Positions 33 to 61,887 of a DNA stretch of 64,000 nt are shown in pieces. The position numbers were made by a program, and so were the translations under genes. The notes below the pieces were generated by a model, which was not told the origin of the DNA, did no database searches, and saw nothing but the letters and a program-made list of their open reading frames with translations. The DNA comes from a phage. Each line of letters begins with the position of its first letter. Positions within the stretch are counted from its first letter, which is position 1. The DNA lies in sequence record PZ452594.1. One strand, written 5' to 3'.

Positions 33-2012
33 ATGACTTTATTATCTCCGGGCATTGAGCTCAAAGAAACTACGGTTCAAAGCACCGTGGTTAATAACTC
101 TACTGGTACAGCAGCTTTGGCCGGTAAATTCCAGTGGGGTCCTGCTTTTCAGATTAAACAGGTTACAAATGAAGTAGATTTAGTTAATACTTTTGGTCAA
201 CCAACAGCTGAAACTGCTGACTATTTTATGTCTGCGATGAATTTCTTGCAGTACGGAAATGACTTACGAGTAGTTCGTGCTGTTGATAGAGATACCGCTA
301 AAAATTCATCTCCGATTGCTGGTAATATTGAATACACAATTTCTACCCCAGGTAGTAACTATGCAGTTGGAGATAAAATCACGGTCAAATATGTTTCAGA
401 TGATATTGAAACTGAAGGTAAAATTACCGAAGTAGACGCAGATGGAAAAATTAAGAAAATTAATATTCCTACTGCAAAAATTATTGCTAAAGCTAAAGAA
501 GTTGGCGAATACCCAACATTAGGTTCTAACTGGACTGCAGAAATTTCTTCATCTTCTTCCGGTTTAGCTGCAGTAATAACTCTTGGAAAAATTATTACTG
601 ATTCCGGTATTTTATTAGCTGAAATCGAGAGCGCTGAAACTGCTATGACAGCAGTTGATTTTCAGGCAAATCTTGAAAAATATGGAATTCCAGGAGTAGT
701 AGCTCTCTATCCAGGCGAATTAGGCGATAAAATTGAAATTGAAATCGTATCTAAAGCTGACTATGCAAAAGGAGCTTCTGCATTACTCCCAATTTATCCA
801 GGTGGTGGTACTCGTGCATCTACTGCCAAAGCAGTGTTTGGATATGGGCCACAAACTGATTCACAGTACGCTATTATAGTTCGTCGTAATGATGCTATTG
901 TTCAAAGTGTTGTTCTTTCAACTAAGCGCGGTGAAAAAGATATTTACGATAGTAACATCTATATCGATGACTTTTTCGCAAAAGGTGGTTCAGAATATAT
1001 TTTTGCAACTGCACAAAACTGGCCAGAAGGCTTCTCTGGAATTTTAACTCTGTCTGGTGGATTATCATCAAATGCTGAAGTTACAGCAGGAGATTTGATG
1101 GAAGCTTGGGATTTCTTTGCTGATCGCGAATCTGTAGATGTTCAGCTTTTTATTGCTGGTTCTTGTGCCGGTGAATCTTTAGAAACAGCATCTACTGTCC
1201 AAAAACACGTCGTTTCAATTGGGGATGCTCGCCAAGATTGCTTAGTATTGTGCTCTCCTCCGCGTGAAACTGTAGTTGGAATTCCTGTAACTCGTGCTGT
1301 TGATAACTTAGTCAATTGGAGAACTGCAGCAGGTTCATACACTGATAATAACTTTAATATCAGTTCAACCTACGCAGCAATTGATGGTAACTACAAATAT
1401 CAGTATGACAAATATAATGATGTGAATCGTTGGGTTCCATTAGCAGCTGATATTGCTGGTTTATGCGCAAGAACTGATAACGTATCTCAGACTTGGATGT
1501 CTCCAGCTGGTTATAATCGTGGTCAGATTCTTAACGTTATTAAACTTGCTATTGAAACTCGCCAGGCTCAGCGCGACCGTTTATACCAAGAAGCTATCAA
1601 CCCGGTAACCGGTACAGGTGGTGATGGTTACGTATTGTATGGTGATAAAACAGCTACTTCTGTTCCTTCTCCATTTGATCGTATTAACGTTCGTCGTCTG
1701 TTTAATATGTTGAAAACGAATATCGGACGTAGTTCAAAATATCGTTTGTTCGAATTAAACAACGCGTTTACTCGTTCTTCATTCCGTACAGAAACTGCTC
1801 AGTACTTGCAAGGAATTAAAGCTCTTGGCGGAATTTATGAATATCGTGTAGTTTGCGATACAACAAATAATACTCCGTCAGTAATTGATAGAAATGAGTT
1901 TGTTGCAACATTCTACATCCAACCGGCTCGTAGTATAAATTATATCCAACTTAATTTCGTCGCAACTGCTACTGGTGCAGATTTTGATGAGTTAACTGGT
2001 CTTGCAGGTTAA
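33..2012 (+). CDS. 18: Tail sheath protein gp18 (659 aa)
   Basis: Full-length ORF; N-terminus MTLLSPGIELKETTVQ and length match T4 gp18; followed by tail tube gene. Confidence 0.97.
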   Translation: MTLLSPGIELKETTVQSTVVNNSTGTAALAGKFQWGPAFQIKQVTNEVDLVNTFGQPTAETADYFMSAMNFLQYGNDLRVVRAVDRDTAKNSSPIAGNIEYTISTPGSNYAVGDKITVKYVSDDIETEGKITEVDADGKIKKINIPTAKIIAKAKEVGEYPTLGSNWTAEISSSSSGLAAVITLGKIITDSGILLAEIESAETAMTAVDFQANLEKYGIPGVVALYPGELGDKIEIEIVSKADYAKGASALLPIYPGGGTRASTAKAVFGYGPQTDSQYAIIVRRNDAIVQSVVLSTKRGEKDIYDSNIYIDDFFAKGGSEYIFATAQNWPEGFSGILTLSGGLSSNAEVTAGDLMEAWDFFADRESVDVQLFIAGSCAGESLETASTVQKHVVSIGDARQDCLVLCSPPRETVVGIPVTRAVDNLVNWRTAAGSYTDNNFNISSTYAAIDGNYKYQYDKYNDVNRWVPLAADIAGLCARTDNVSQTWMSPAGYNRGQILNVIKLAIETRQAQRDRLYQEAINPVTGTGGDGYVLYGDKTATSVPSPFDRINVRRLFNMLKTNIGRSSKYRLFELNNAFTRSSFRTETAQYLQGIKALGGIYEYRVVCDTTNNTPSVIDRNEFVATFYIQPARSINYIQLNFVATATGADFDELTGLAG

Positions 2013-2028
2013 TACGGTGCATTCTAAA

Positions 2029-2046
2029 GGCCTGTTTCGGCAGGCC
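2029..2046 (+). terminator. UUCG-tetraloop hairpin after gene 18
   Basis: ggcctg(t) ttcg (g)caggcc, 17 nt after gene 18 stop. Confidence 0.5.
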
Positions 2047-2107
2047 ATATAAATACACTATATCCTTAATTCTTTAATTCTATATGCCCTAGGTTAAACA
2101 TAGGGGA

Positions 2108-2115
2108 TATAAATA
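2108..2115 (+). promoter_or_regulatory. Late promoter motif TATAAATA upstream of gene 19 (second copy at 2048-2055)
   Basis: Exact TATAAATA 15 nt before ATG 2130. Confidence 0.65.
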
Positions 2116-2129
2116 CTACAGAGGCTAAT

Positions 2130-2621
2130 ATGTTTGTAGATGATGTAACACGCGCGTTTGAATCAGGTGATTTTGCGCGACCTAACTTATTCCAAGTAGA
2201 AATTTCTTATCTTGGACAAAATTTTACGTTTCAATGTAAAGCCACTGCTTTACCAGCTGGTATTGTAGAAAAAATTCCAGTCGGATTTATGAACCGTAAA
2301 ATTAACGTAGCAGGTGATCGTACATTCGATGACTGGACTGTTACAGTAATGAACGATGAGGCACATGATGCTCGCCAGAAGTTCGTTGATTGGCAAAGCA
2401 TTGCTGCTGGTCAAGGAAACGAAATTACTGGTGGAAAACCTGCAGAGTATAAAAAGAGCGCTATCGTTCGTCAATATGCTCGTGACGCTAAAACAGTAAC
2501 AAAAGAAATTGAAATTAAAGGTCTGTGGCCTACTAACGTGGGTGAACTTCAATTAGATTGGGATTCAAACAATGAAATTCAAACCTTTGAAGTAACTCTT
2601 GCTCTCGATTATTGGGAATAA
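2130..2621 (+). CDS. 19: Tail tube protein gp19 (163 aa)
   Basis: 163-aa ORF at the T4 gp19 position and size; TATAAATA motif 15 nt upstream. Confidence 0.96.
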   Translation: MFVDDVTRAFESGDFARPNLFQVEISYLGQNFTFQCKATALPAGIVEKIPVGFMNRKINVAGDRTFDDWTVTVMNDEAHDARQKFVDWQSIAAGQGNEITGGKPAEYKKSAIVRQYARDAKTVTKEIEIKGLWPTNVGELQLDWDSNNEIQTFEVTLALDYWE

Positions 2622-2626
2622 AATGA

Positions 2627-2644
2627 ATGGGGAGAAATCCCCAT
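2627..2644 (+). terminator. GNRA-tetraloop hairpin after gene 19
   Basis: atgggga gaaa tccccat immediately after gene 19 stop; no strong U-run. Confidence 0.45.
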
Positions 2645-2653
2645 CCTGCTTAA

Positions 2654-4278
<1,625 letters not shown>

Positions 4279-4279
<1 letters not shown>

Positions 4280-4518
4280 TGGAAGGTTTAATTGAAGCTA
4301 TTAAATCAAACGACCTCGTAGCCGCTCGTAAATTATTTGCTGAAGCCATGGCTGCAAGAACGACTGATTTAATCAAAGAAGAAAAAATCACTATCGCTCG
4401 TAATTTCTTAATCGAGGGTGAAGAACCTGATGACGAGGATGAAGATGACGACGACGATAATGATGATAAAGACGACAAAAAAGACAAAGACTCTGACGAA
4501 GACGAGGATGATGAATAA
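4279..4518 (+). CDS. 67: Prohead core protein gp67, poly-acidic C-terminus
   Basis: 79-aa ORF between portal and gene 68; C-terminal run of D/E ([19 protein letters not shown]...); start overlaps gene 20 stop. Confidence 0.85.
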
Positions 4519-4943
4519 TGATTCTAATCCCTGAAACTCATGAATTAGTTCTCGAGAATGTCGAAGCACTTATTCCTGAAGCACAGGGTCGCTTTGACGA
4601 GTTGTCTTCTGCTTTAAATAAAGACGATATAAATAAAATTATCGAGAATATGCTTGATGATGAAACTGATTTAGCGGTTGCATTAGCTTCTATTAATGAA
4701 AATATGCCGTTAAATGAATTTATCGTTAAACATGTTTCTGCCCGTGGTGAAATTACTCGCACTAAAGATCGCAAAACCCGCGAACGTAATGCATTTCAAA
4801 CTACCGGGTTGTCTAAAGCAAAACGTAGACAAATTGCTCGTAAAGCTACCAAAACGAAGATTGCCAATCCAGCAGGTCAATCTCGTGCTCAGCGTAAGCG
4901 TAAAAAAGCTCTTAAACGCCGTAAAGCATTAGGATTAAGCTAA
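4518..4943 (+). CDS. 68: Prohead core protein gp68 (141 aa)
   Basis: 141-aa ORF, basic C-terminus, position between 67 and 21 as in T4. Confidence 0.85.
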
Positions 4944-5581
4944 TGAATGAACCCCAATTGCTAATTGAAACTTGGGGTCAACCTGGCGAAATTATTGATG
5001 GCGTGCCAATGCTTGAATCCCATGATGGGAAAGACTTAGGTTTAAAACCTGGTTTATACATCGAAGGAATATTCATGCAAGCAGAAGTCGTCAATAGAAA
5101 TAAACGTCTTTATCCAAAACGTATATTAGAAAAAGCGGTAAAAGACTATATTAATGAGCAAGTTTTAACTAAACAAGCTCTCGGAGAATTAAATCATCCT
5201 CCACGCGCTAATGTTGACCCGATGCAAGCCGCTATCATTATAGAAGATATGTGGTGGAAAGGAAATGACGTATACGGACGAGCTCGTGTTATTGAAGGTG
5301 ACCATGGTCCTGGAGATAAATTAGCAGCTAATATTCGTGCCGGATGGATTCCAGGAGTTTCTTCTCGTGGATTAGGTTCATTGACTGACACAAATAAAGG
5401 TTATCGTATCGTAAACGAAGGATTCAAATTAACTGTAGGTGTTGATGCAGTATGGGGTCCAAGTGCTCCAGATGCATGGGTAACTCCTAAGGAAATTACC
5501 GAATCACAGACGGCGGAAGCCGATACAAGTGCCGATGACGCCTATATGGCTCTCGCAGAGGCCATGAAAAAAGCGTTATAA
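4943..5581 (+). CDS. 21: Prohead core scaffold protein and maturation protease gp21 (212 aa)
   Basis: 212-aa ORF, N-terminus [14 protein letters not shown], conserved position upstream of 22/23. Confidence 0.95.
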   Translation: MNEPQLLIETWGQPGEIIDGVPMLESHDGKDLGLKPGLYIEGIFMQAEVVNRNKRLYPKRILEKAVKDYINEQVLTKQALGELNHPPRANVDPMQAAIIIEDMWWKGNDVYGRARVIEGDHGPGDKLAANIRAGWIPGVSSRGLGSLTDTNKGYRIVNEGFKLTVGVDAVWGPSAPDAWVTPKEITESQTAEADTSADDAYMALAEAMKKAL

Positions 5582-5611
5582 ATATTATTATCTAAACAAC
5601 AGGACTACAAA

Positions 5612-6421
5612 ATGCTTAAAGAACAACTGATTGCCGAAGCGCAGAAAATTGATGCTTCCGTTGCTCTTGATAGTATTTTCGAATCAGTTAATATTTCTCC
5701 GGAAGCAAAAGAAACTTTCGGCACTGTATTCGAAGCTACCGTCAAGCAGCACGCCGTTAAATTAGCTGAATCTCATATCGCTAAAATTGCTGAAAAAGCA
5801 GAAGAAGAAGTAGAAAAAAATAAAGAAGAAGCAGAAGAAAAAGCTGAGAAGAAAATCGCTGAGCAAGCTTCTAAATTCCTTGACCATCTTGCAAAAGAAT
5901 GGCTCACTGAAAATAAATTAGCAGTAGATAAAGGTATCAAAGCCGAACTGTTTGAATCCATGCTTGGTGGATTGAAAGAGCTCTTCGTTGAACACAACGT
6001 TGTTGTTCCAGAAGAATCAGTTGATGTTGTAGCTGAAATGGAAGAAGAGCTGCAAGAACATAAAGAAGAATCAGCTCGTCTGTTCGAAGAACTCAATAAG
6101 CGTGACGCATATATCAATTATGTGCAGCGTGAAGTGGCATTGAGCGAAAGTACTAAAGATCTGACTGAGTCTCAAAAAGAAAAAGTCTCTGCTCTGGTCG
6201 AAGGTATTGATTATTCAGATGCATTCTCAAGCAAATTGAGTGCCATCGTAGAAATGGTGAAGAAATCTAATAAAGATGAAAGCACTATTACTGAGAGTAT
6301 AAATACTCCTGATACTGAAGCAGCCGGACTGAATTTCGTCACTGAAGCTGTAGAAGATAAATCTGCACAAGGTGCAGAAGATATTGTAAGTGTATATGCG
6401 AAAGTCGCATCTCGTTTCTAA
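5612..6421 (+). CDS. 22: Prohead scaffolding core protein gp22 (269 aa)
   Basis: 269-aa highly acidic, coiled-coil-rich ORF directly upstream of the major capsid gene. Confidence 0.95.
   Translation: MLKEQLIAEAQKIDASVALDSIFESVNISPEAKETFGTVFEATVKQHAVKLAESHIAKIAEKAEEEVEKNKEEAEEKAEKKIAEQASKFLDHLAKEWLTENKLAVDKGIKAELFESMLGGLKELFVEHNVVVPEESVDVVAEMEEELQEHKEESARLFEELNKRDAYINYVQREVALSESTKDLTESQKEKVSALVEGIDYSDAFSSKLSAIVEMVKKSNKDESTITESINTPDTEAAGLNFVTEAVEDKSAQGAEDIVSVYAKVASRF
6298..6305 (+). promoter_or_regulatory. Late promoter motif for gene 23, inside 3-prime end of gene 22
   Basis: Exact TATAAATA 135 nt upstream of gene 23 ATG. Confidence 0.6.
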
Positions 6422-22893: not shown

Positions 22894-22896
22894 CAA

Positions 22897-22916
22897 TGGG
22901 GACCTTTCGGTCCCCA
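22897..22916. terminator. Bidirectional hairpin between convergent gene 54 and the alt.-3-like ORF
   Basis: tggggacc tttc ggtcccca followed by tatttttattt. Confidence 0.65.
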
Positions 22917-22921
22917 TATTT

Positions 22922-23212
22922 TTATTTACGGAATGAAATGAAAGCAGAAACTGAAGCAACTAAACTGTCTTCAATATAAACTTCAATTTTTACCGGAGCT
23001 TCTGACTCAAATTTACCTGTTACTACACCCTGGAAAATGCTTTCAGTCTGTTCTGGCTTTGAAAAATTTTCAGAAGGAAAAATTCCGAACTTTTTATCTG
23101 TTCCAAAAATTTTAATAAATTCATCGTAAACCGCTTCGTTAAAAGCATTATCAACAGGAATAACGCCTTCAACTACAAGTTCTTGACCTAAAAAGCGCAA
23201 AGAAGATTTCAT
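22922..23212 (-). CDS. Hypothetical protein (96 aa; positional equivalent of T4 alt.-3)
   Basis: ORF with GAGGAA RBS and its own GTTTAC/TATAGT early promoter. Confidence 0.6.
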   Translation of the reverse strand: MKSSLRFLGQELVVEGVIPVDNAFNEAVYDEFIKIFGTDKKFGIFPSENFSKPEQTESIFQGVVTGKFESEAPVKIEVYIEDSLVASVSAFISFRK

Positions 23213-23243: not shown

Positions 23244-23273
23244 ACTATAACACAACATAAGGAACTTGTAAAC
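23244..23273 (-). promoter_or_regulatory. T4-type early promoter for the alt.-3-like ORF
   Basis: Minus strand GTTTAC (23273-23268), 18-nt spacer, TATAGT (23249-23244); leader with GAGGAA RBS. Confidence 0.6.
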
Positions 23274-25330
23274 TACATTTTGAACTTTTTAGACATTCCG
23301 TTGATGTTAACCAAAGAAGCCAAGATTTGAGAAACTTCGTTTTCCTCTTCTTTTGATTCTTCTACAAGGAATTGATTAAATCCAGCCATTGGACGAACTT
23401 CACCGGTTTCCATTAAATGGTCTCCATCATATACTGATTCTTCTAATTGTTCAGAAGGAGGAACGATTGTACCTTCGATTAGATACTTGTTATAAGCAGT
23501 TTCTTTCATAAAGTACGTACTTACTTTATTAATCTTCAGTAAAATTCCACGCGGTAGAATAACTTCAGCTTCTGATGGAAATCCTGATAAATGACCTGGA
23601 ACGATAACTTTGATTCGCTCAGCTCCTTTAATTACCATACCCACGCTAGTTTCAGCATCTTCATTAGCATATGTAGAATGACTACCCATATGCATCAAAT
23701 CTTCTGCGTCAACTGAACCTTCTCCTTCACCAGAAAATACTGCGCCGGAATCATCTAGAGCCATATAGTTTTTACCATGCTCACCGAAGATATTTGGTTT
23801 AAGAGATGTGGATACGAAGTTCTTGAAATAGAACATTTTGTTTTCAATGTTATGACGCAAAGTTTTAAAGGTAACTTCTTGTCCGCGATAAAGCGTAGTT
23901 CCTGGAGGAAGAACTGAACCTTTAGCGAATGCAGAATCCAACGTCTCGATGTGCTTAATAGCTCGTTCCATATATTCTTCACGGGTAGAATCTGGTTTAC
24001 CCAAAAGGAACGAGTTCATTTCAACATATGAATCTGCACAATAATCTTCAATTACATCAGATTCAGCTTGGGTTAATCCTTTTGGAGTTACTTCAGTGCT
24101 TGCGTATTCATATGCCTGGGCAGCAGATTCATTAATCAATTTATAAATGCCATTCATTACAAATTGAATAATAGCTGTCTTTTCATCTGGCGTAGCTTTA
24201 GAACCTTTAACTAAATCATTGATAATTTTCTTAATAACATCAAAGCTATTAGAAATATTAATGTCAGCAAGATCGCTTAAAATTTTATCAGTTTTATAAT
24301 CAAAGAATTCTTTATTCTTTAAATATTCTTGAGAACCTTGATATGTTATATCGCTCTGCAACTTGATGGATGGATCACGTAAACGCGCATGGGCTAATGC
24401 AATATGATTTCGGAAGTTTTCTAGTTCATAATCGCTAGATTTAAAACGAGAAGCACTCCTCATACCACCGATAGCTCCTTTGCTGAAGTTTGAACCAATC
24501 TGAATAACGCCAGAGTTCATCGGACCTTCTGCTTTATATACCGGAACTTTAGATTCAAACTCTTGATATTTCTTAGCAGCGAAGCTATCACCCTGAAGTG
24601 AAGCATCAACAGTAGAATATTGAGCTTGTGCTGCTAATCGACGACTAATTTTAGTTTTCTGAATAACAGCTTGGTCCGTGCGCTTATCATTTTCTAAAGC
24701 AATAGAAGCAGCAACAGCGACAGCTTTAGGAACAGCATTACCTGTTTTAACGTCTACATAAACATCACCAACCTTTGATTCAACTTTTGTGAATAACTCA
24801 GTTGAAATAGGAGGTACACCTGGAATGTCTTCTAAATTGGCATTTTTACGGTAAACCATAATATATGCATACTTTTTATCATAGTCCCAGATTTCCTTTA
24901 AAAGAACATATCGACCTGCTCCTTTAGTACGTACTAAACGGTCAGCAATAACTTGCATTTGACGAGCAGCGCCATTTGTTTTACTTTTTAGTACGCGGAA
25001 TAAGCATGCGTCAATTTTATACTGCTTCATTGTTTGAAGAGCAGTATCAAAAACAGCGTTAATGACGCCAATTGGATTTCCACCCAAGTTTTTAAGCTTA
25101 ACCAGCGATAATTTCTCGTTGACACCTATCATTACGATATGCATCATTTTATCGCCTGGCTTAACGTTTTTATTCGTATCACCACCAGAGGTGTATGTAC
25201 AAAATCTAAATCCAGGAAGCACGCTTTCTTCGCCGGCTTGAATAGCAAAAATTTGTGGTATTTTATGCTTAGGATTTAAGTTAACAACCGGCGCCGAAGC
25301 GCCGTCAAATAATTCTGTAATAAGTTCCAT
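23273..25330 (-). CDS. Alt-like mono-ADP-ribosyltransferase paralog (685 aa)
   Basis: N-terminal ~230 aa closely similar to Alt (MELITELFD..., FCTYTSGGDTN, YKIDAC, WDYDKKYAYI); C-terminal half has R (TLYRGQ), STS (FVSTSL) and ExE (SEAEVILPRG) ART motifs. Confidence 0.85.
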   Translation of the reverse strand: MELITELFDGASAPVVNLNPKHKIPQIFAIQAGEESVLPGFRFCTYTSGGDTNKNVKPGDKMMHIVMIGVNEKLSLVKLKNLGGNPIGVINAVFDTALQTMKQYKIDACLFRVLKSKTNGAARQMQVIADRLVRTKGAGRYVLLKEIWDYDKKYAYIMVYRKNANLEDIPGVPPISTELFTKVESKVGDVYVDVKTGNAVPKAVAVAASIALENDKRTDQAVIQKTKISRRLAAQAQYSTVDASLQGDSFAAKKYQEFESKVPVYKAEGPMNSGVIQIGSNFSKGAIGGMRSASRFKSSDYELENFRNHIALAHARLRDPSIKLQSDITYQGSQEYLKNKEFFDYKTDKILSDLADINISNSFDVIKKIINDLVKGSKATPDEKTAIIQFVMNGIYKLINESAAQAYEYASTEVTPKGLTQAESDVIEDYCADSYVEMNSFLLGKPDSTREEYMERAIKHIETLDSAFAKGSVLPPGTTLYRGQEVTFKTLRHNIENKMFYFKNFVSTSLKPNIFGEHGKNYMALDDSGAVFSGEGEGSVDAEDLMHMGSHSTYANEDAETSVGMVIKGAERIKVIVPGHLSGFPSEAEVILPRGILLKINKVSTYFMKETAYNKYLIEGTIVPPSEQLEESVYDGDHLMETGEVRPMAGFNQFLVEESKEEENEVSQILASLVNINGMSKKFKM

Positions 25331-25333
25331 GAT

Positions 25334-27430
25334 TTATCCTTGAACGAACTTGTAAGGCATGTTTGTAATATCTATGCAAGACGCAATAATTCCAAGAGAT
25401 GATTCGACTTTCTGTTTAACATTTGATGAAACAAATGATGCAAAATCAACTCTGTCTTCTATTTCAATATCACCTGTCATTGCAACTACTTCGCCGGTTT
25501 CCATTAGACGGTCACCGTCATAAATTACTGATTCGGTGAGTTCTTCCGTAGTCATAACTTCAGCTTGAATGAGTTTTGTATTATTAGATGTTGTTCCGTC
25601 ATTATTAGAAGCATCAGTTATTTTATTAACTTTGACCATCAATCCACGCGGTAGAATAACTTCAGCTTCAGTTGCTATTCCGAGATTTCCTGGATATACA
25701 ACATTAACTTTATGTGCGCCGTCAATAGCCCATCCTATTTGAACTTTAACGTATTCAGGATTTTCTTTATACGCTCTTATTTCGTTTGGATTAATAGTTA
25801 TTCCTTCTTCATTTTTATCAACTGTTAATTCGTTACGAGCTTCTGGTTCTAAAAGACCAATACCAGCATGTGTAATTCCAAAACGCCCAAAAATGATAGG
25901 AGTTAAAGAAGTAGATACAAAATTTCTGAAATAGAACACTTTATTTTTAACTAACGCTTCATATATAGGAGCAGTCATACTTTGAGCACGATAAACTGTA
26001 ATGCCTTCTGGTATACGGTCACCATTTTCAAAAGCTGAATCTAAGTTATTTATAGCAGATTCAATTTCTTTTTCACTCATTACATCATATCGTTCTGGAT
26101 TGTAACGACCTAAAAGAAGATTATTAATGTCTGTATATCCTGAACCACAATACTCTCTAATGCCGCGCTTTTGTGATGGAGTATATTTAGAACCATCACG
26201 GGCAATAGTAATATCAATCATTGGACCTGCACCAATTCCAGAAAAACTATAAATCATTCTTTTGAGGAATTTAGTTTTTGCTGCGTTCCAGGAATTTTTA
26301 GTCATTTCTTCCCAGACTTCATCTGGTTGCCCTTTACGAGTTTTATTATGTTTATCAAGCCAATTATCTTTATATTCTTCAAAGAATTTATTAACAGCTG
26401 CTGCGTATTTCTCTAAACATTTTATTGAAGTAGTTGGTTCATTTTTGATTGCGTTAAAAATTACATCTTTAATTTTTTCTGAAACTTCACCGACTTGACT
26501 CATTGGAAAGAATTTATAATCATAGTGAAGTTCATCTGCCGTTCCTTCAGCAATAATTTTTGCTGCCTTTGTTTTAGAAGCTAATGAATTAATTCCAATT
26601 TTCATTTCTTCTGCTTCGGGAATTAAAGGTGCAGTAGCTGGTTTATTAAAATTAGCTGCTGTAGATTCATACTTCTGGAATAATTCACTTTCAAATCTAG
26701 AAGATTCCAATGACTGACTTTGTGCAATTGCTCTACGGGAAATTTTAACTTTAACGATTACAGCTTGGTCAGAACGTTTATCATTTTCTTGTGCAATTGA
26801 TGCTGCAATTGCCTCATTTTTAGTTACTTGGGCTCCAGTATCTTTATTGATATAAACATCACCGACTTTCGATTCAACTTTAGTAAAGAGCTCGGTACTA
26901 ATTTCCGGAACTCCTGGAATGTCTTCTAGTGATACATTTTTGCGATGTATAAGAATATATGCATACTTTTTATCGTAATCCCAGAGTTCCTTAAGAAGGA
27001 CGTATCTACCACCTGAACGACTACGGATAAGTCTATCAGCAATAACTTGAATTTGTCGAGCTTGGCCAGCAGTTTTAGACTTAAGAATACGAAGCATGCA
27101 GGCATCAATTTTATATTGACGCATTGTTTGCATTGCAACAGTAAAAACTGAATTGATATAATTAATCGGGCTTGGACCCAGACCTTTTAATTTAGCAATT
27201 GAACCTTTAGCAGTTAATGTAAAAGGAACAATATGCATCATTTTATCTCCCATCTTTAAATCGCGATTAGTATCACCTCCAGATGTATAGGTACATAAAC
27301 GAAAGCCTGGTTGTTCAATTGCATCATCAACATGAACTGAAAAAATTTGTGGTATTTTCTTCTTTGGATTTAAGTTTGTAATCGGAAGAGTAGTATCTTC
27401 GTCAAATAATTCTGTAATGAGTTCCATCAT
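25334..27430 (-). CDS. alt: Alt, packaged mono-ADP-ribosyltransferase (698 aa from first ATG)
   Basis: N-terminus (M)MELITELFDEDTTLPITNL; ART motifs YRAQ, FVSTSL, TEAEVILPRG; late promoter motif upstream on minus strand. Confidence 0.9.
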   Translation of the reverse strand: MMELITELFDEDTTLPITNLNPKKKIPQIFSVHVDDAIEQPGFRLCTYTSGGDTNRDLKMGDKMMHIVPFTLTAKGSIAKLKGLGPSPINYINSVFTVAMQTMRQYKIDACMLRILKSKTAGQARQIQVIADRLIRSRSGGRYVLLKELWDYDKKYAYILIHRKNVSLEDIPGVPEISTELFTKVESKVGDVYINKDTGAQVTKNEAIAASIAQENDKRSDQAVIVKVKISRRAIAQSQSLESSRFESELFQKYESTAANFNKPATAPLIPEAEEMKIGINSLASKTKAAKIIAEGTADELHYDYKFFPMSQVGEVSEKIKDVIFNAIKNEPTTSIKCLEKYAAAVNKFFEEYKDNWLDKHNKTRKGQPDEVWEEMTKNSWNAAKTKFLKRMIYSFSGIGAGPMIDITIARDGSKYTPSQKRGIREYCGSGYTDINNLLLGRYNPERYDVMSEKEIESAINNLDSAFENGDRIPEGITVYRAQSMTAPIYEALVKNKVFYFRNFVSTSLTPIIFGRFGITHAGIGLLEPEARNELTVDKNEEGITINPNEIRAYKENPEYVKVQIGWAIDGAHKVNVVYPGNLGIATEAEVILPRGLMVKVNKITDASNNDGTTSNNTKLIQAEVMTTEELTESVIYDGDRLMETGEVVAMTGDIEIEDRVDFASFVSSNVKQKVESSLGIIASCIDITNMPYKFVQG

Positions 27431-27450: not shown

Positions 27451-27458
27451 TATTTATA
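27451..27458 (-). promoter_or_regulatory. Late promoter motif (minus strand) upstream of alt
   Basis: Plus TATTTATA = minus TATAAATA, 21 nt upstream of alt ATG. Confidence 0.6.
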
Positions 27459-27463
27459 AAATT

Positions 27464-27481
27464 AAAGGCCCGAAGGCCTTT
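27464..27481 (-). terminator. UUCG-tetraloop hairpin between 62-aa ORF and alt
   Basis: aaaggcc cgaa ggccttt (UUCG on minus-strand RNA). Confidence 0.5.
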
Positions 27482-27668
27482 AATAATCTATTGGTAAGAG
27501 AGTACGATATATTTCAAACTTTGGACCTTTTTCATAAGCATCAAAAGTTTCTGTGAATTTATTATAAGCATATGCATCTATAAATTCAATCATGATTTGT
27601 GATACAGAAGTAGAAACATCTCCACCTTCTTTTTGAGCCACGACAATTGTTTCTAAGTAAGCTTTCAT
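27480..27668 (-). CDS. Hypothetical protein (62 aa)
   Basis: Small ORF between ligase gene and alt, start overlapping gene 30 stop. Confidence 0.5.
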   Translation of the reverse strand: MKAYLETIVVAQKEGGDVSTSVSQIMIEFIDAYAYNKFTETFDAYEKGPKFEIYRTLLPIDY

Positions 27669-29128
27669 AAACCAGTTACCTCATGAAAATCGCCAAATAC
27701 ATCTTCGAACGTATTAGCTTTAGTTTTATCTTCACGTAAACGAATCGCAATTGGAAGAAATAATTTAACGTAATCGGTGCGGCCATCAGATTTTAACCAA
27801 CCGTTGCATTCGCACTCTAGAATTTTTCCAATATAATAATTTTGGTTTTCCATAATGCGAGTACGGTCAAGTTCATGTGATTTTACACCAGCTTTATCTT
27901 TTAAGCCTGAACCAGCATTTACTTTAATTTTTCCACACTCTGACTCAAGAATAAATCCACCCGCTTTAGTAGGGTCTTTACGGTGAGGATAAATTCCTAC
28001 AATTTTTAAATCAACATCAATTACTTCTTTAAATTTATAGAGATTTTTTGAACGGGCATTTTCCCATAATCCATCGATATTTTTGAGAATAATACCTTCA
28101 AGACCTTGGTCAATATACTTTTTGTAAATTACCTTAGCTTCATCTAGGTTATTTACTACCTGGTTTTCAATTAAAATTACTTTATCATATCCTGATGTCA
28201 TTTGTTCTAATTTAGAAAAACGTACATCGTACTTTAAACGAAATGCTGGAAGACCGTATATTTCTACCAACGGTACATAATCCCAGACCTGAAACTTCAT
28301 GCATTGAGCTTCTTTTTCTGAAATAGTTCCCTTTAAAGATTTATTAGCGATTCCATTAGAAGCAGTACGTGATTCAGCTACTTCGGCGAATTCTTTAGCT
28401 TTACTAATTTCAGGATAAGCATCAAAAAGAAAATCTAGGCCTTCTGGCTCCTTTTTAACTTGCTCATGGTATACCAATTCGCCATCAATTAACACACCTT
28501 CTGGATGAATCTGGCGGGCTTCAGCGGTCATTTTAATTAACTCTTCCTTAAGAAGATCTAATCCTAGATATTCATTACCAGCTCGTGATAAAAGACGAAC
28601 ATCATCTAATTCATCACCTCTGACTTCAGCAAAGCACCGAGCTCCATCAGCTTTTAACTGGGCAAAAGCTGGAAATTTGATATTCTTATTAATGCCTTTT
28701 TCATCATAAGAACTTGCAAGCATTTGAGGTTGTTCAGGAATTAAACCTGGCCAAACTTTATTTGCAATAGATACTGATGCACCGCATTCAAGGTCTCGCA
28801 TCATCACCCGACGCAAAACTTCAACATCATCTTTTTTACCATCGGTGATATATCCAATTAATTCCTCAATTGCCGCATTTCCAGTCAATTTCCGAGTAGC
28901 TAACGTGAATTCAATGAAGTCGAGCATATCGGTAAGAGTCAACATTCCAAAACTCTGGGTAGCAATACCCGGTTTAGGCCATTTCTTGATATAATACTGT
29001 AACCCACGAGAATAAGTCAGACGATATACTCGTTTAAGCAATTCATTATCTTTATTCTTTTCAAGAATTGCTTGCTTCTGCTTAGTTGAACCAATAGATG
29101 CTATTTCGTTCAGAATTTTAAGAATCAT
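27665..29128 (-). CDS. 30: ATP-dependent DNA ligase gp30 (487 aa)
   Basis: 487 aa; adenylation motif KADGARC; N-terminus MILKILNEIASIGSTKQKQ as T4 ligase. Confidence 0.97.
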   Translation of the reverse strand: MILKILNEIASIGSTKQKQAILEKNKDNELLKRVYRLTYSRGLQYYIKKWPKPGIATQSFGMLTLTDMLDFIEFTLATRKLTGNAAIEELIGYITDGKKDDVEVLRRVMMRDLECGASVSIANKVWPGLIPEQPQMLASSYDEKGINKNIKFPAFAQLKADGARCFAEVRGDELDDVRLLSRAGNEYLGLDLLKEELIKMTAEARQIHPEGVLIDGELVYHEQVKKEPEGLDFLFDAYPEISKAKEFAEVAESRTASNGIANKSLKGTISEKEAQCMKFQVWDYVPLVEIYGLPAFRLKYDVRFSKLEQMTSGYDKVILIENQVVNNLDEAKVIYKKYIDQGLEGIILKNIDGLWENARSKNLYKFKEVIDVDLKIVGIYPHRKDPTKAGGFILESECGKIKVNAGSGLKDKAGVKSHELDRTRIMENQNYYIGKILECECNGWLKSDGRTDYVKLFLPIAIRLREDKTKANTFEDVFGDFHEVTGL

Positions 29129-57228: not shown

Positions 57229-60200
57229 ATGGCTACTTTAAAACAAATACAATTTAAAAGAAGCAAAACCGCAGGTGCACGTCCTGCTGCTTCAGTATTA
57301 GCCGAAGGTGAATTGGCTATAAACTTAAAAGATAGAACAATTTTTACTAAAGATGATTCAGGAAATATCATTGATCTAGGTATTGCTAAAGGCGGTCAAA
57401 TTGATGGAAATGTAACTATTGATGGAACTTTACGCGTCAATGGACCAATAAACAACTTTGGAAATTTTTCTACAAATGGTACTATTACGGCAAGTAATAT
57501 TGTTTCTGCTACAGTATTCAGATCAACATCCGGTTCATTTTATACAAGAGCAATAAATGATACTGCAAATGCCCATCTTTGGTTTGAAAATACAAATGGC
57601 TCAGAACGTGGCGTTTTATATTCAAAACCGCAGTCTGAAAATGAAGGCGTAATTACAATGCGTGTTCGTCAAGGAACCGCTGCGGGAGCTCAAAATTCAG
57701 AATTTCATTTCATTTCTACTGATGGCGGTATCTTCCAGGCACGTAAGTTAACTGCTTTAACTTCTATTAGTACACCAACTATTAGTGTTAATTTAATTAA
57801 TCATGATTCTAAATCATTTGGACAATACGATTCACAATCTTTGGTTAACTATGTTTATCCTGGAACTGGTGAAACAAATGGCGTAAACTATCTTCGTAAA
57901 GTTCGCGCTAAGTCCGGTGGTACAATTTATCATGAAATTGTTACTGCCCAAACAGGCCTGGCTGATGAAGTTTCTTGGTGGACTGGTAATACACCGTTAT
58001 TTAAACTATATGGTATTCGTAACGACGGTAGAATGATTATTCGCAATAGCTTGGCCATTGGTACTGTGACGCAAGGGTTTCCGTCAAGCGATTATGGAAA
58101 TGTTGGGGCACTAGGAAATATATTTCTTGCTTTAGGTGATAATGGAACTGGTCTAGTTTATAGAAAAACCGGCGTATTTGATTTTGTTGGTTCTGGTTTA
58201 TCTTTGGCATCTATTACACCTGATAGTTTCCGTAGTACCCGTAAAGCAATTTTTGGTCGTTCCGAGGACCAAGGTACAACATGGATTATGCCTGGCACTA
58301 ATGCTGCTTTCTTGTCTGTTCAAACACAAGCTGATACTAACAATGCTGGAGACGGGCAAACTCATATTGGGTACAATGCTGACGGTAAAATGAGTCATTA
58401 TTTCCGCGGTAAAGGCAAAACTAATATTAATACTCAGGAAGGTGTGGACGTTAACCCTGGTATTTTAAAATTGGTAACTGGTTCTAATAACGTACAGTTT
58501 TATGCTAACGGAACAGTATCTTCAATACAAAGAATTAAATTTGATAATGGATTAGTTCTTACTGGTGCTAGACCCGATGGTATTCAACTTGACGCTCCTA
58601 CAACAACAGATGGCACTAAAACTATATTGTGGGCCGGTGGTACTCGCGCAGGTCAGAATAAAAGTTATGTATCTATCAAAGCATGGGGTAATGCCTTTAA
58701 CGCATCTGGCGATCGTTCCCGTGAAACAGTTTTTGAGGTAGGTGATGGGCAAGGTTACCATTTTTATTCTCAACGTGTAGCTCCTGCGCCTGGTTCGACT
58801 GTCGGGCCTATTCAACTACGAGTTAATGGTGGTTTATTAACTTCAGGTAGTATTGTTGCTTCTGGTTCTATTACAACCGAATCTTCTTTGAGTGTTAATA
58901 ATGGCATGTCAGTAAACGGTGAATTAAAGGTTGGTGGTACCGCAGATAACTTCCGTATTTGGAACGCTAAATACGGCGCTATTTTCCGTCGTTCAGAAGA
59001 TTCCTTGTATATAATTCCTACAGCCATTAACCAAGGCGAAAGCGGTGGAATAAGCGATATAAGACCGTTCAGTATTAACCTTGGCACTGGCTCTGTTGTA
59101 ATGGGTAACCATACTCAAGCGGGTAAAAACCTTTTCACGGTTGATAACGTTTCTAAATTAGTACAAACTGATGTTCGTTTCCGTGTTAACATGGATTCCG
59201 ACGGTATTGTTTTGAATGCTTCTTCTCAAGCAGCGTCTAACTTTATCCAAGGACGTAAAGCGGATGTTACAAAATGGTATCTCGGTATTGGCGACGGTGG
59301 TAACGTTGTTCGTTTACATAACTATACCTATTCCCACGGTATTGCATTAAACTCTGATACTGTAGATATTACTAAGCCTCTTAAAATTAATAATATTCGA
59401 ATTGGTACAGATGGCAACATCACAGGTGGTACTGATAATTTTGCCAATTTAAATACAACGTTAAACAATAAAGTCAATGTTGGTGGTTGGTCAGGCGGAG
59501 CTACAACTGGGTGGTATAAGTTTGCGACAGTTAATATTCCTCAATCTACTGGAACAGTATCATTTAAAATATATGGTGGTTCAGGATTTAATTTTAAAAG
59601 TTATGGGCAAGCTTCTGTCGCAGAAATAATTCTTAGAACTGGAAATAATCCTAAAGGACTTAACGCTACATTATGGAACAGAACTTCTGAAGCATTTTCA
59701 CAAATTGCTACAGTTAACACAAGCAATGATACATATGACGTTTATGTTTATGTGGGAGGATATTCAAATGCTTTAGTCGTCGAATATTCATGTACCAGTA
59801 ATAGTACAGTAACTGTTGTTGGTGTTAATGGAGGAATTCAACCTATTGTTGAAACACTTCCAGAAGGTCATGTAGTAGGTAAAACTGTAAGATTATTGAA
59901 TAACATCGATGGAATGTTTGCTGCTGGTGAATCTGATGTTGTTACTCGTGGTGAATTTGTTACCAATAACCAAAAAGGTTTACGCATTAAATCTAGAGGC
60001 AACGATATTGATTCTAATGCTGTTATTATTCGAAATGATGGTGGAAGTTTTTATATTCTAGCTACAGATAAGAATACATCATCAAATCCTGATGCTGCAT
60101 CAGGTAATTGGAATAATTTAAGACCTTTCTCCATTAATATGGCTGATGGTCGCGTTGGTATGAACCATGGTCTAAATATTACCGGCGGTGGCTTGAATGT

Positions 60201-61071
60201 TACTGGTGGCTTGAATGTTACTAGCGGTAATACTAGTTTAGGTAATATCTCGTCTCGTGTAGTAGCAGGTTGGCGAGGAGCGTCTGGTTGGGCTGATAAC
60301 TCGGATACAATGAAATCTAAAATCACCTTTATGGCAGACCATGGGGATTTATCTAATTCAGGCAGTTATTATCCTATTGTAGGTGCATACAGCAACTATG
60401 GTTCAGCAGGTTATCGTCAAACCTTTGAATTTGGATGGGTCGGCTCTGGTACCACCGCTGGGTGGCGAGAAGGTATTATTCGTATTCGCGGAGATAATGC
60501 TAACGGCCAGCAAGCAAGATGGCGCTTTACAATGAACGGTATTTTAGATTGCCCTGGTAAAGTACAGATGCCACAAACAAGCGCATTTGGTGTCAATACA
60601 ACAAATGGATGGGGTGGTAACTCAATTGCGATAGGTGATAGCGATACTGGTTTTAGACAAGTAGGCGATGGGCTTTTAGAAACATGGGCAAACAACGTTA
60701 AGGTCGTTCGTTATACTTCAAGTGAAGTTTATTCCGAGAAAAACGTCAACGCTCCTAACGTTTATATTCGTTCTGATATTCGTTTGAAATCTAATTTCAA
60801 GCCTATTGAAAACGCGCTCGAAAAGGTTGAACAACTTGATGGTTTAATCTATGACAAAGCTGAATATATAGGCGGTGAACCTGTCCAAACAGAAGCAGGT
60901 ATTATAGCTCAAACGTTGCAAGACGTTTTACCAGAAGCCGTCCGTGAAACAGAAGACAGCAAGGGTAATAAAATACTCACTGTTTCTTCTCAAGCCCAGA
61001 TTGCTCTTCTGGTTGAAGCTGTGAAAACACTTTCTTCTCGTGTAAAAGAACTTGAATCTAAACTTATGTAA
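57229..61071 (+). CDS. 37: Long tail fibre distal subunit gp37 (1280 aa) with C-terminal intramolecular chaperone domain
   Basis: N-terminus [22 protein letters not shown] (conserved gp36-binding region); C-terminal ~100 aa begin at SDIRLK (Ser-Lys dyad signature of S74-type auto-processing chaperone domains). Confidence 0.93.
60190..60225 (+). repeat. Perfect in-frame 18-bp tandem duplication in gene 37
   Basis: ggcttgaatgttact at 60190-60204 and again at 60208-60222 (period 18), encoding [12 protein letters not shown]. Confidence 0.7.
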
Positions 61072-61072
61072 A

Positions 61073-61090
61073 AGAGGGCTTCGGCCCTCT
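61073..61090 (+). terminator. UUCG-tetraloop hairpin after gene 37
   Basis: agagggc ttcg gccctct 2 nt after gene 37 stop. Confidence 0.6.
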
Positions 61091-61101
61091 AAGGATTTTT
61101 A

Positions 61102-61887
61102 ATGGCAATTGTAGGTGTTCCTGGCTGGATTGGCGAATCTGCCGTGAATGAAACTGGACAACGCTGGATGGATGCTGCAATGAGAGCTGTTCGTGTTTCA
61201 GTTCCTGGTTGGATGAGCTCAATGGCTGGACAATCTAAAGAAGTATATTACAGCATTGGTGCTAGTAATTCTTATAATAAAGACACGTTAATAAACTGGA
61301 TAAAAGCCCAAGGCAGTACTCCTGTTGTTATTACTATTACAGGAAATATTGTTTCTCAATCTACTGGTGTTCCATGCTTAGATTTTCCTAGCTCATTAAC
61401 TAATGCATACGTGACACTTAATATCAATTCAGGCGTGCATGTTTGGGGCCGTGGCGGGAATGGCGGAAATAACTCTGCCGGTGGAGCAGGAGGAACTGCA
61501 ATAAATAATGGAATTGGAACTAGATTGCGTATTAACAACAATGGTGTTATCGCAGGAGGCGGTGGCGGCGGTGGAGGCGGATATTATTCTCCTTTTTCAC
61601 AAATGAAATTGACTTTTGGCGGTGGCGGCGGTCGTCCATTTGGTGCTGCTGGCGGGTCTGCTAATATGGAACAGGGCGCTACTGCTGGTACTATTTCTGC
61701 ACCTGGTAAAGGGTCTGTCAATGGTATCTATAATGGCGGGAATGGCGGTGATGCTGGTGCCGCAGGTGGTAAATGTAATATTCGTGGGCAAGGATCAGAA
61801 TATAACGGCGGTGCTGCTGGTAAGGCTGTTACTGGTAATGCTCCAACTTGGACTAAAGTTGGTACAATATATGGTTCAAGAGTATAA
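61102..61887 (+). CDS. 38: gp38 receptor-recognising adhesin, T2-type with glycine-rich motifs (261 aa)
   Basis: 261 aa; N-terminus MAIVGVPGWIGESAVNETGQRWMDAAMRAV; multiple poly-Gly motifs (GGGGGGGGG, GGGGGRP, GGNGG) separated by variable segments. Confidence 0.85.
   Translation: MAIVGVPGWIGESAVNETGQRWMDAAMRAVRVSVPGWMSSMAGQSKEVYYSIGASNSYNKDTLINWIKAQGSTPVVITITGNIVSQSTGVPCLDFPSSLTNAYVTLNINSGVHVWGRGGNGGNNSAGGAGGTAINNGIGTRLRINNNGVIAGGGGGGGGGYYSPFSQMKLTFGGGGGRPFGAAGGSANMEQGATAGTISAPGKGSVNGIYNGGNGGDAGAAGGKCNIRGQGSEYNGGAAGKAVTGNAPTWTKVGTIYGSRV
61430..61760 (+). repeat. Glycine-codon (GGN) repeat tracts inside gene 38
   Basis: Runs such as ggaggcggtggcggcggtggaggcgga and ggcggtggcggcggtcgt encoding poly-Gly motifs; tract boundaries approximate. 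Confidence 0.6.

Follow-up and report, generated by a model that had tools for sequence, protein, structure and literature searches.

Two tandem, diverged alt genes in a Tequatrovirus segment and their relation to the single alt gene of T4

Nearly all knowledge of injected phage ADP-ribosyltransferases (ARTs) comes from Alt of phage T4, a prohead-core protein present in about 40 copies and injected along with the DNA (PMC9026906), which the gp21 protease cuts at ITE-6 and, by mass spectrometry, at LTE-619, the second cut removing 63 C-terminal residues (PMC5694885). T4 has a single alt gene and two small open reading frames (ORFs), alt.-1 and alt.-2 (61 and 67 amino acids [aa]), whose annotation traces them to an old duplication of the initial part of alt. 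Here we describe a 64,000-nucleotide stretch of phage record PZ452594.1 (the window), a Tequatrovirus (T-even) segment with DNA 95 to 98% identical to that of slur02/04, CM8, RB32/33, and T2, in which alt is followed by an intact, full-length paralog. This two-Alt arrangement is already known and is the usual annotated state in T-even phages: in RefSeq, dozens of genomes have both genes under the name "Alt-like RNA polymerase ADP-ribosyltransferase," the RB32 annotation (2006) gives "similar to alt" for alt.-2, and among the paralogous duplications listed by Nolan et al. 2006 are alt.-1/alt.-2 and full-length duplicates of alt (PMC1524935). A 2026 phage characterization paper further takes a pair of paralogous Alt-like proteins (43.3% identical) as suggestive of functional divergence and a wider target range (PMC13600099), so the interpretation offered in the original prediction for this locus, that two injected enzymes could act on different host proteins, had in essence already been published. 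Our search of the literature for experiments on the paralog and for virion proteomics of two-Alt phages found no virion, activity, or target data; the model phage T4 lacks this second enzyme.

Domains, catalytic residues, and cleavage motifs of the two proteins

Both genes are uninterrupted minus-strand ORFs, exactly where the original prediction had placed its 698- and 685-aa proteins (Table 1). Alt and the paralog are 41% identical overall (BLASTP, E = 2e-157), both match Pfam PF03496 (ADPrib_exo_Tox; 1.8e-37 for Alt and 5.8e-20 for the paralog), and phrog_802, "Alt-like RNA polymerase ADP-ribosyltransferase," covers residues 1 to 696 of Alt (5.5e-273) and the full length of the paralog, residues 1 to 685 (7.3e-257). 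PF03496 and PF26846 are both precomputed on close relatives of the two proteins, and no NCBIfam family matched either of them. Alt consists of an N-terminal domain (N-domain), a helical linker, an R-S-E ART domain, and a C-terminal propeptide, and the paralog can be compared with it domain by domain: identity is 66 to 68% in the N-domain (paralog residues 1 to 238), 14 to 15% in the linker (residues 239 to 415), 36% in the ART domain (residues 416 to 625), and 41% in the propeptide (residues 626 to 685). The common N-terminal part, anticipated at about 230 aa, extends over roughly 235 aa, and the MELITE leader with its I-x-E site is indeed found in both proteins. The further statement that the C-terminal halves are divergent holds for part of their length: divergence is strongest (9 to 20% identity in 40-residue windows) in the linker of about 180 residues and in an insert of 40 to 70 residues between the S-T-S and E-x-E motifs, both of which are essentially unrelated between the two proteins, but the ART core and the YDGD..ETGE motif of the propeptide are conserved.

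To place these differences in context, we aligned 18 Alt-family sequences, the paralog included. The Arg of the Y-R-x-Q motif, both Ser residues of S-T-S, and both Glu residues of E-x-E are invariant, and a check of the exact codons in the window confirmed that R, STS, and ExE are kept in both copies, with no catalytic residue lost on alignment. A PDB search with the single paralog sequence gave no match, and only the 18-sequence profile reached C3-like ARTs; it aligns the YRG and ExE motifs to C3-like and binary-toxin ARTs, and the hallmarks of the C3/VIP2-like R-S-E mono-ADP-ribosyltransferase fold (R, S-T-S, and a catalytic Glu in a [Q/E]-x-E turn) are all found. In T4 Alt, replacement of the counterpart of the second Glu of E-x-E by Ala abolishes catalysis (PMC11404850). 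It is highly probable that both genes are functional ART genes.

The loop that precedes E-x-E differs between the two proteins. In the profile alignment to PDB entries the C3-like loop reads A-Y-P-G-Q-Y-E, and in C3- and iota-type toxins the substrate is contacted by an aromatic residue at position -3 relative to the first Q/E of the catalytic turn (the ADP-ribosylating turn-turn [ARTT] loop). Members of the paralog lineage have F/Y-P-x-E-x-E at this place, the window paralog reading F584-P-S-E-A-E, which is C3-toxin-like; the loop is I-A-T-E-A-E in the window Alt and P-S-N-E-M-E in T4 Alt. Because this loop differs and the linker and the S-T-S/E-x-E insert are essentially unrelated, distinct substrate sets are the most economical reading, and it is plausible that Alt and the paralog act on different host targets.

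Both proteins also carry two candidate gp21 cleavage motifs, which are kept at aligned columns in all 18 family members. The N-terminal site ends at residue 6 (ITE, LNE, or LTE across the family; ITE-6 in both window proteins), and the C-terminal site, at the column of T4 LTE-619, is [L/I/M]-x-E followed by Ser or Ala, with Ser in both window proteins. The original prediction had read the I-x-E of the MELITE leader as a gp21 site; T4 Alt is cut at precisely this position, and conservation of the motif extends to the paralog. Cleavage at both sites would yield mature products of 70.2 kDa (Alt residues 7 to 632) and 69.1 kDa (paralog residues 7 to 631). An invariant Y-D-G-D ... E-T/S-G-E motif and a terminal K-F mark the acidic propeptide in all 18 members; a second L-M/L-E motif lies ten residues into it in 15 of the 18, and AlphaFold2 (AF2) confidence is low at paralog residues 630 to 685. 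Conservation of a segment that would be discarded suggests that it serves either to target the protein to the core or to hold the enzyme inactive until maturation. The predicted packaging, injection, and separate targets of the two proteins are well supported by sequence.

Comparison with RB32 demonstrates that alt and its paralog are both under strong purifying selection. The paralog differs from its RB32 ortholog by 28 synonymous and 3 nonsynonymous differences (ratio of nonsynonymous to synonymous rates [dN/dS], 0.028), and alt differs from its own by 58.5 synonymous and 12.5 nonsynonymous differences (dN/dS, 0.054). Even in the conserved N-domain, synonymous differences between Alt and the paralog have reached saturation (proportion of synonymous differences [pS], 0.68; dN, 0.28), which indicates that the duplication is old. 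The same saturation led us to reject recent gene conversion in the PZ452594.1 genome as the source of the conserved N terminus and to attribute the similarity to constraint. In other genomes there are chimeric paralogs (P0003, P0005, and P0006) in which the first ~50 to 200 residues are Alt-type and the remainder paralog-type, which is evidence that the tandem copies occasionally exchange sequence through gene conversion or recombination.

The T4 deletion and the distribution of alt and its paralog

A comparison of the paralog with the T4 ORFs alt.-1 and alt.-2, which the original prediction had proposed, demonstrates that these ORFs are remnants of the paralog and not of Alt. The stretch to which they align is the initial ~117 residues of the paralog, not of Alt, and phrog_23015 and phrog_15247 match the paralog at 2e-40 and 3e-38 versus 1e-21 and 2e-19 for Alt. 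At the DNA level (blastn and alignment of the junction), T4 has the window arrangement minus the 1,699 bp between two copies of the 9-bp direct repeat ACTTTTTAG, the single T4 copy lying at positions 6105-6113 of the T4 locus (L001). Relative to the paralog, T4 alt.-1/alt.-2 have therefore lost the linker, the ART domain, and the propeptide through the 1,699-bp deletion, together with an internal disruption of the reading frame. The same gene as in the window, 685 aa long and in the same position and orientation, is present in RB32 (alt.-2, YP_803136) and likewise in T2, T6, RB18, CM8, the slur phages, and others, and the window paralog has three amino acid differences from the RB32 copy. The RB32 record calls the gene an "apparent insertion in alt.-2; similar to alt"; the comparison shows a deletion in T4 instead.

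A 301-bp probe spanning the T4-type junction matched 500 records, contiguously in 91 of them and in split form in the others, so that about four-fifths of sequenced relatives (about 400 of about 500 records) keep the full paralog and T4 belongs to a minority deletion lineage. The T4-type deletion junction occurs with either alt allele; FL44, for example, combines it with a T2-type alt. Among 50,697 phage records, the C-terminal 446 aa of the paralog are at least 95% identical in 402, and the next-best matches fall to about 52%; far from decaying, the paralog exists as one tightly conserved allele.

The upstream alt gene is mosaic and occurs as two discrete alleles, T2/T6-type and T4-type, that have near-identical ends and almost no intermediates in the genus. 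Over the central 377 aa the T2/T6-type is at least 80% identical in about 350 records, and the T4-type is at least 90% identical in 174 records. The window carries the T2/T6-type; its central 377 aa (25541-26671), comprising the linker and the catalytic region, are 47% identical to T4 Alt (tblastn).

Expression signals, proposed role, and alternative explanations

The expression signals and the gp21, gp22 scaffold, and gp23 genes that the window also encodes fit late coexpression and head incorporation of both Alt proteins. A T4-type late-promoter box, TATAAATA, directly follows a hairpin located after alt.1, the hairpin separating the gene 30/alt.1 unit from the late alt unit. This box lies 21 nucleotides (nt) upstream of the first of two adjacent ATGs of alt (27430) and 24 nt upstream of the second (27427). 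We favor the second because a GAGG ribosome-binding site stands 5 nt before it and because the start is annotated in this way in T4 and RB32 as well; the Alt product most likely starts with MELITE at 27427 and has 697 aa. The paralog follows after a gap of 3 nt, its AAGGA ribosome-binding site overlapping the alt stop, and there is no terminator or strong promoter between the two genes, which implies cotranscription and makes coupled translation possible. A separate late promoter for the paralog was considered and rejected: the lone nearby TATAAATA (26054-26047), inside alt and ~720 nt upstream, is within chance expectation, as the window holds 18 matches to this motif against 8.6 expected, or ~0.3 expected per 2 kb.

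Gene order around the alt pair is exactly that of the T4 alt region, both genes lying in the T4 alt slot with gene 30/alt.1 on one side and alt.-3/gene 54 on the other, and the minus-strand block from gp30 to alt.-3 faces gp54 and gp48 on the plus strand. Of the neighbors, alt.1 matches Pfam PF24647 ("Phage blade protein") at 7.5e-29, and C-terminal extension mutants of T4 alt.-3 escape the CmdTAC defense by preventing the degradation of CmdA (PMC11618068). Elsewhere in the window (57229-61887) the distal tail fiber gene 37 is a 1,280-aa ORF followed by a 261-aa T2/T6-type gp38 adhesin (PF05268 and PF21721), indicating that the phage has a T2-type receptor-binding arrangement, not that of T4.

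Table 1. Features of the alt region and related genes in the window (aa, amino acids)
Feature	Position	Strand	Basis or remark
DNA ligase gp30	27665-29128	minus	gene order
alt.1	27480-27668	minus	62-aa ORF
Hairpin AAAGGCC-TTCG-GGCCTTT after alt.1, then late-promoter box	27451-27482	minus	read from sequence
T4-type late-promoter box TATAAATA	27458-27451	minus	directly after hairpin
alt, alternative start at ATG 27430	25334-27430	minus	698 aa from first ATG
alt, T2/T6-type allele	25334-27427	minus	697 aa; PF03496 and phrog_802
Alt N-terminal ITE motif	27410-27418	minus	alignment
Alt R480	25988-25990	minus	codon translated
Alt S505-T506-S507	25907-25915	minus	codons translated
Alt E587-A588-E589	25661-25669	minus	codons translated
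Alt C-terminal gp21 motif L630-T631-E632	25532-25540	minus	followed by Ser
Alt propeptide, 65 aa	25337-25531	minus	alignment
alt/paralog junction: alt stop TAA and AAGGA ribosome-binding site directly before paralog ATG	25331-25345	minus	3-nt gap
Alt paralog (RB32 name alt.-2), intact	23273-25330	minus	685 aa
Paralog N-domain, aa 1-238, common with Alt	24617-25330	minus	includes gp21 site
Paralog N-terminal gp21 motif I4-T5-E6	25313-25321	minus	alignment
9-bp direct repeat ACTTTTTAG, second copy, T4 deletion endpoint	24983-24991	plus	junction alignment
Paralog ART domain, aa 416-625	23456-24085	minus	codons translated
Paralog R482	23885-23887	minus	codon translated
Paralog S507-T508-S509	23804-23812	minus	codons translated
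Paralog E587-A588-E589	23564-23572	minus	codons translated; F584 at position -3 from E587
Paralog C-terminal gp21 motif L629-E630-E631	23438-23446	minus	followed by Ser
Paralog propeptide, 54 aa, acidic, with YDGD..LMETGE	23276-23437	minus	alignment
9-bp direct repeat ACTTTTTAG, first copy	23284-23292	plus	inside paralog gene
Early-type promoter of alt.-3, TTTACA-17-TATAGT	23272-23244	minus	alt.-3's own
alt.-3 (DUF5498)	22922-23212	minus	downstream neighbor of paralog
Bidirectional terminator after alt.-3	22896-22917	both	follows alt.-3
gp21 prohead protease (Peptidase_S77)	4943-5581	plus	Pfam PF03420 at 1.5e-111

From the intactness and family membership of the two genes, their catalytic residues and cleavage motifs, the purifying selection acting on them, their late-promoter context, and their distribution, all of which were observed here, we infer packaging, cleavage, injection, enzymatic activity, and a difference in targets. 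Alt and the paralog would form a late-transcribed two-gene unit, both members of which would encode functional, arginine-specific mono-ADP-ribosyltransferases of the Alt family. Both proteins would probably be built into the prohead core, given the conserved N-terminal module and the two gp21 sites in each; both ends would then be trimmed, with the removal of 6 N-terminal residues and an acidic C-terminal propeptide of 54 or 65 residues, and the trimmed proteins would remain inside the head and enter the cell together with the injected DNA. Their ADP-ribosylation of host proteins would then precede all phage gene expression. As products of an old duplication, the two enzymes most likely act on host protein sets that are distinct or overlap only in part, because the linker, the S-T-S/E-x-E insert, and the pre-E-x-E loop are where they differ most. 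We consider the full chain, from late expression through packaging, double cleavage, and injection to different targets, moderately probable.

Among the alternatives, the one that survives best holds that the second copy is a redundant dose, providing more or sturdier injected enzyme for the same targets (RNA polymerase alpha Arg265 and other promiscuous substrates). The identity of catalytic motifs and domain layout in the two proteins, the many substrates reported for T4 Alt (Depping 2005, as cited in PMC5512222), and the fact that T4 tolerates loss of the paralog would all agree with such a role, but the two copies have only 36% identity in the ART domain and 14 to 15% in the linker, with saturated synonymous sites, and yet each is under strong purifying selection. 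Moreover, the paralog lineage is a tight single allele in its 402 records while the upstream gene has two alleles, and the pre-E-x-E loop differs in kind between the copies. That both diverged copies have been kept over a long time speaks against simple redundancy, which we regard as unlikely.

Less probable still is a paralog that is expressed late and left unpackaged, acting in the producing cell like ModA/ModB, or one that is mainly a structural or core component. Packaging of the paralog is deduced from its sequence, and a place in the core has been described for Alt in addition to its enzymatic role (PMC11404850); on the other side, all 18 family members have the leader at the N terminus, the N-domain, and the two gp21 motifs conserved in common with Alt, and a purely structural role would not need invariant catalytic residues and a dN/dS of 0.03.

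It is highly improbable that the paralog is a decaying duplicate that, like its T4 counterpart, is on its way out and still open by chance: alt.-1/alt.-2 of T4 are fragments of it, and shorter versions exist among the proteins (P0007, 624 aa; P0008, 528 aa; P0010, 415 aa), but the window copy is full length against the family profile with all catalytic and processing motifs intact, differs from RB32 by 28 synonymous versus 3 nonsynonymous changes, is at least 95% identical in 402 records, and has a positional counterpart kept in Dhakavirus that is 52% identical over the C-terminal 446 aa. A pseudogene reading of the window paralog is effectively ruled out by the uninterrupted full-length ORF, the dN/dS of 0.028, the intact motifs, and the presence of both 9-bp repeats and the 1,699 bp between them.

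If two injected enzymes with different targets are what this locus encodes, a broader proposal follows, which we put forward tentatively: most T-even phages may inject two different arginine ADP-ribosyltransferases (three in Dhakavirus), the second of which, lost from laboratory T4 by a 1.7-kb microhomology deletion, may have its own targets, e.g., defense or toxin proteins rather than RNA polymerase. Were this true, work based on T4 would have missed part of the injected takeover and counterdefense arsenal, and a paralog injected with its own targets would be an unstudied first-minute takeover or antidefense effector in hundreds of therapeutic and model phages, T2 and T6 included.

Comparison with other phage and bacterial ADP-ribosyltransferases

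The paralog has its closest outside relative in Dhakavirus (PSD9/JS10-type), where three tandem Alt-like genes lie between alt.1 and alt.-3 in place of the two in the window. In Shigella phage PSD9 these three ART genes occupy positions 244-6356 of the locus (L003), and the copy adjoining alt.-3 is the one that is 52% identical to the paralog over its C-terminal 446 aa. With one copy in T4, two in most Tequatrovirus members, and three in Dhakavirus, the locus is an expandable array.

The N-domain common to Alt and the paralog was sought more widely. A HMMER scan of 1.84e9 representatives found it in 69 clusters, nearly all of 600 to 710 aa; when 9 members that were short or otherwise atypical were scanned against Pfam, 6 had PF03496 above the cutoff. 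A GNAT-like acyltransferase was considered as a candidate for the fold of the N-domain. A search by sequence for non-ART effectors fused to the N-domain was thereby answered in the negative, the family being small and nearly always ART-linked; P0183, for instance, is a divergent ART-like protein with the N-domain. One protein of 541 aa, P0184, has the Alt N-domain at E = 7.5e-7, and its C-terminal ~350 aa gave no Pfam ART match, no visible R/STS/ExE pattern, and no recognizable domain; it may be an N-domain fused to a different effector. A Foldseek search of BFVD with a model of the N-domain (24611-25330) returned matches at E values of 1e-7 to 1e-4 (template modeling [TM] score, ~0.5; 11 to 18% identity) to the N termini of large uncharacterized proteins from unrelated big myoviruses of Erwinia, Vibrio, Dickeya, Shigella (MK-13), and Agrobacterium (Atu_ph07), some of which are annotated with zeta-toxin, ParB/Srx, or deaminase domains. 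On the basis of these modeled similarities, the Alt N-domain may be a general head delivery module with exchangeable effectors.

Compared with C3-like and binary-toxin ARTs (Vis, C3bot, VIP2, the iota-like CPILE-a, and Certhrax), Alt has in addition the N-domain of ~235 aa, the helical linker of ~180 aa, a variable insert of 40 to 70 aa between S-T-S and E-x-E, and a C-terminal propeptide that is removed by a protease. The mode of delivery differs as well, Alt being ejected from the phage head whereas the toxins are secreted.

The closest described system remains T4 Alt (NP_049811, 682 aa). The window Alt occupies the same slot between alt.1 and alt.-3 and has the same ITE-6/LTE motifs and the same R, S-T-S, and E-x-E residues, and it is 98% identical to T4 Alt in the N-domain and 94% at the C terminus, but identity drops to 31% in the linker and 65% in the ART domain; the paralog is more distant still (24 and 41%). 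To judge from these values, neither window enzyme is, in its catalytic part, the one that has been characterized biochemically, and because the catalytic and linker regions have diverged, the targets of T4 Alt are not simply transferable to either protein. The window thus presents a more typical T-even state than T4 does, and in two respects: an upstream alt allele that over its central 377 aa has only 47% identity to that of T4, and an additional, strongly conserved paralog most of which has been deleted in T4.

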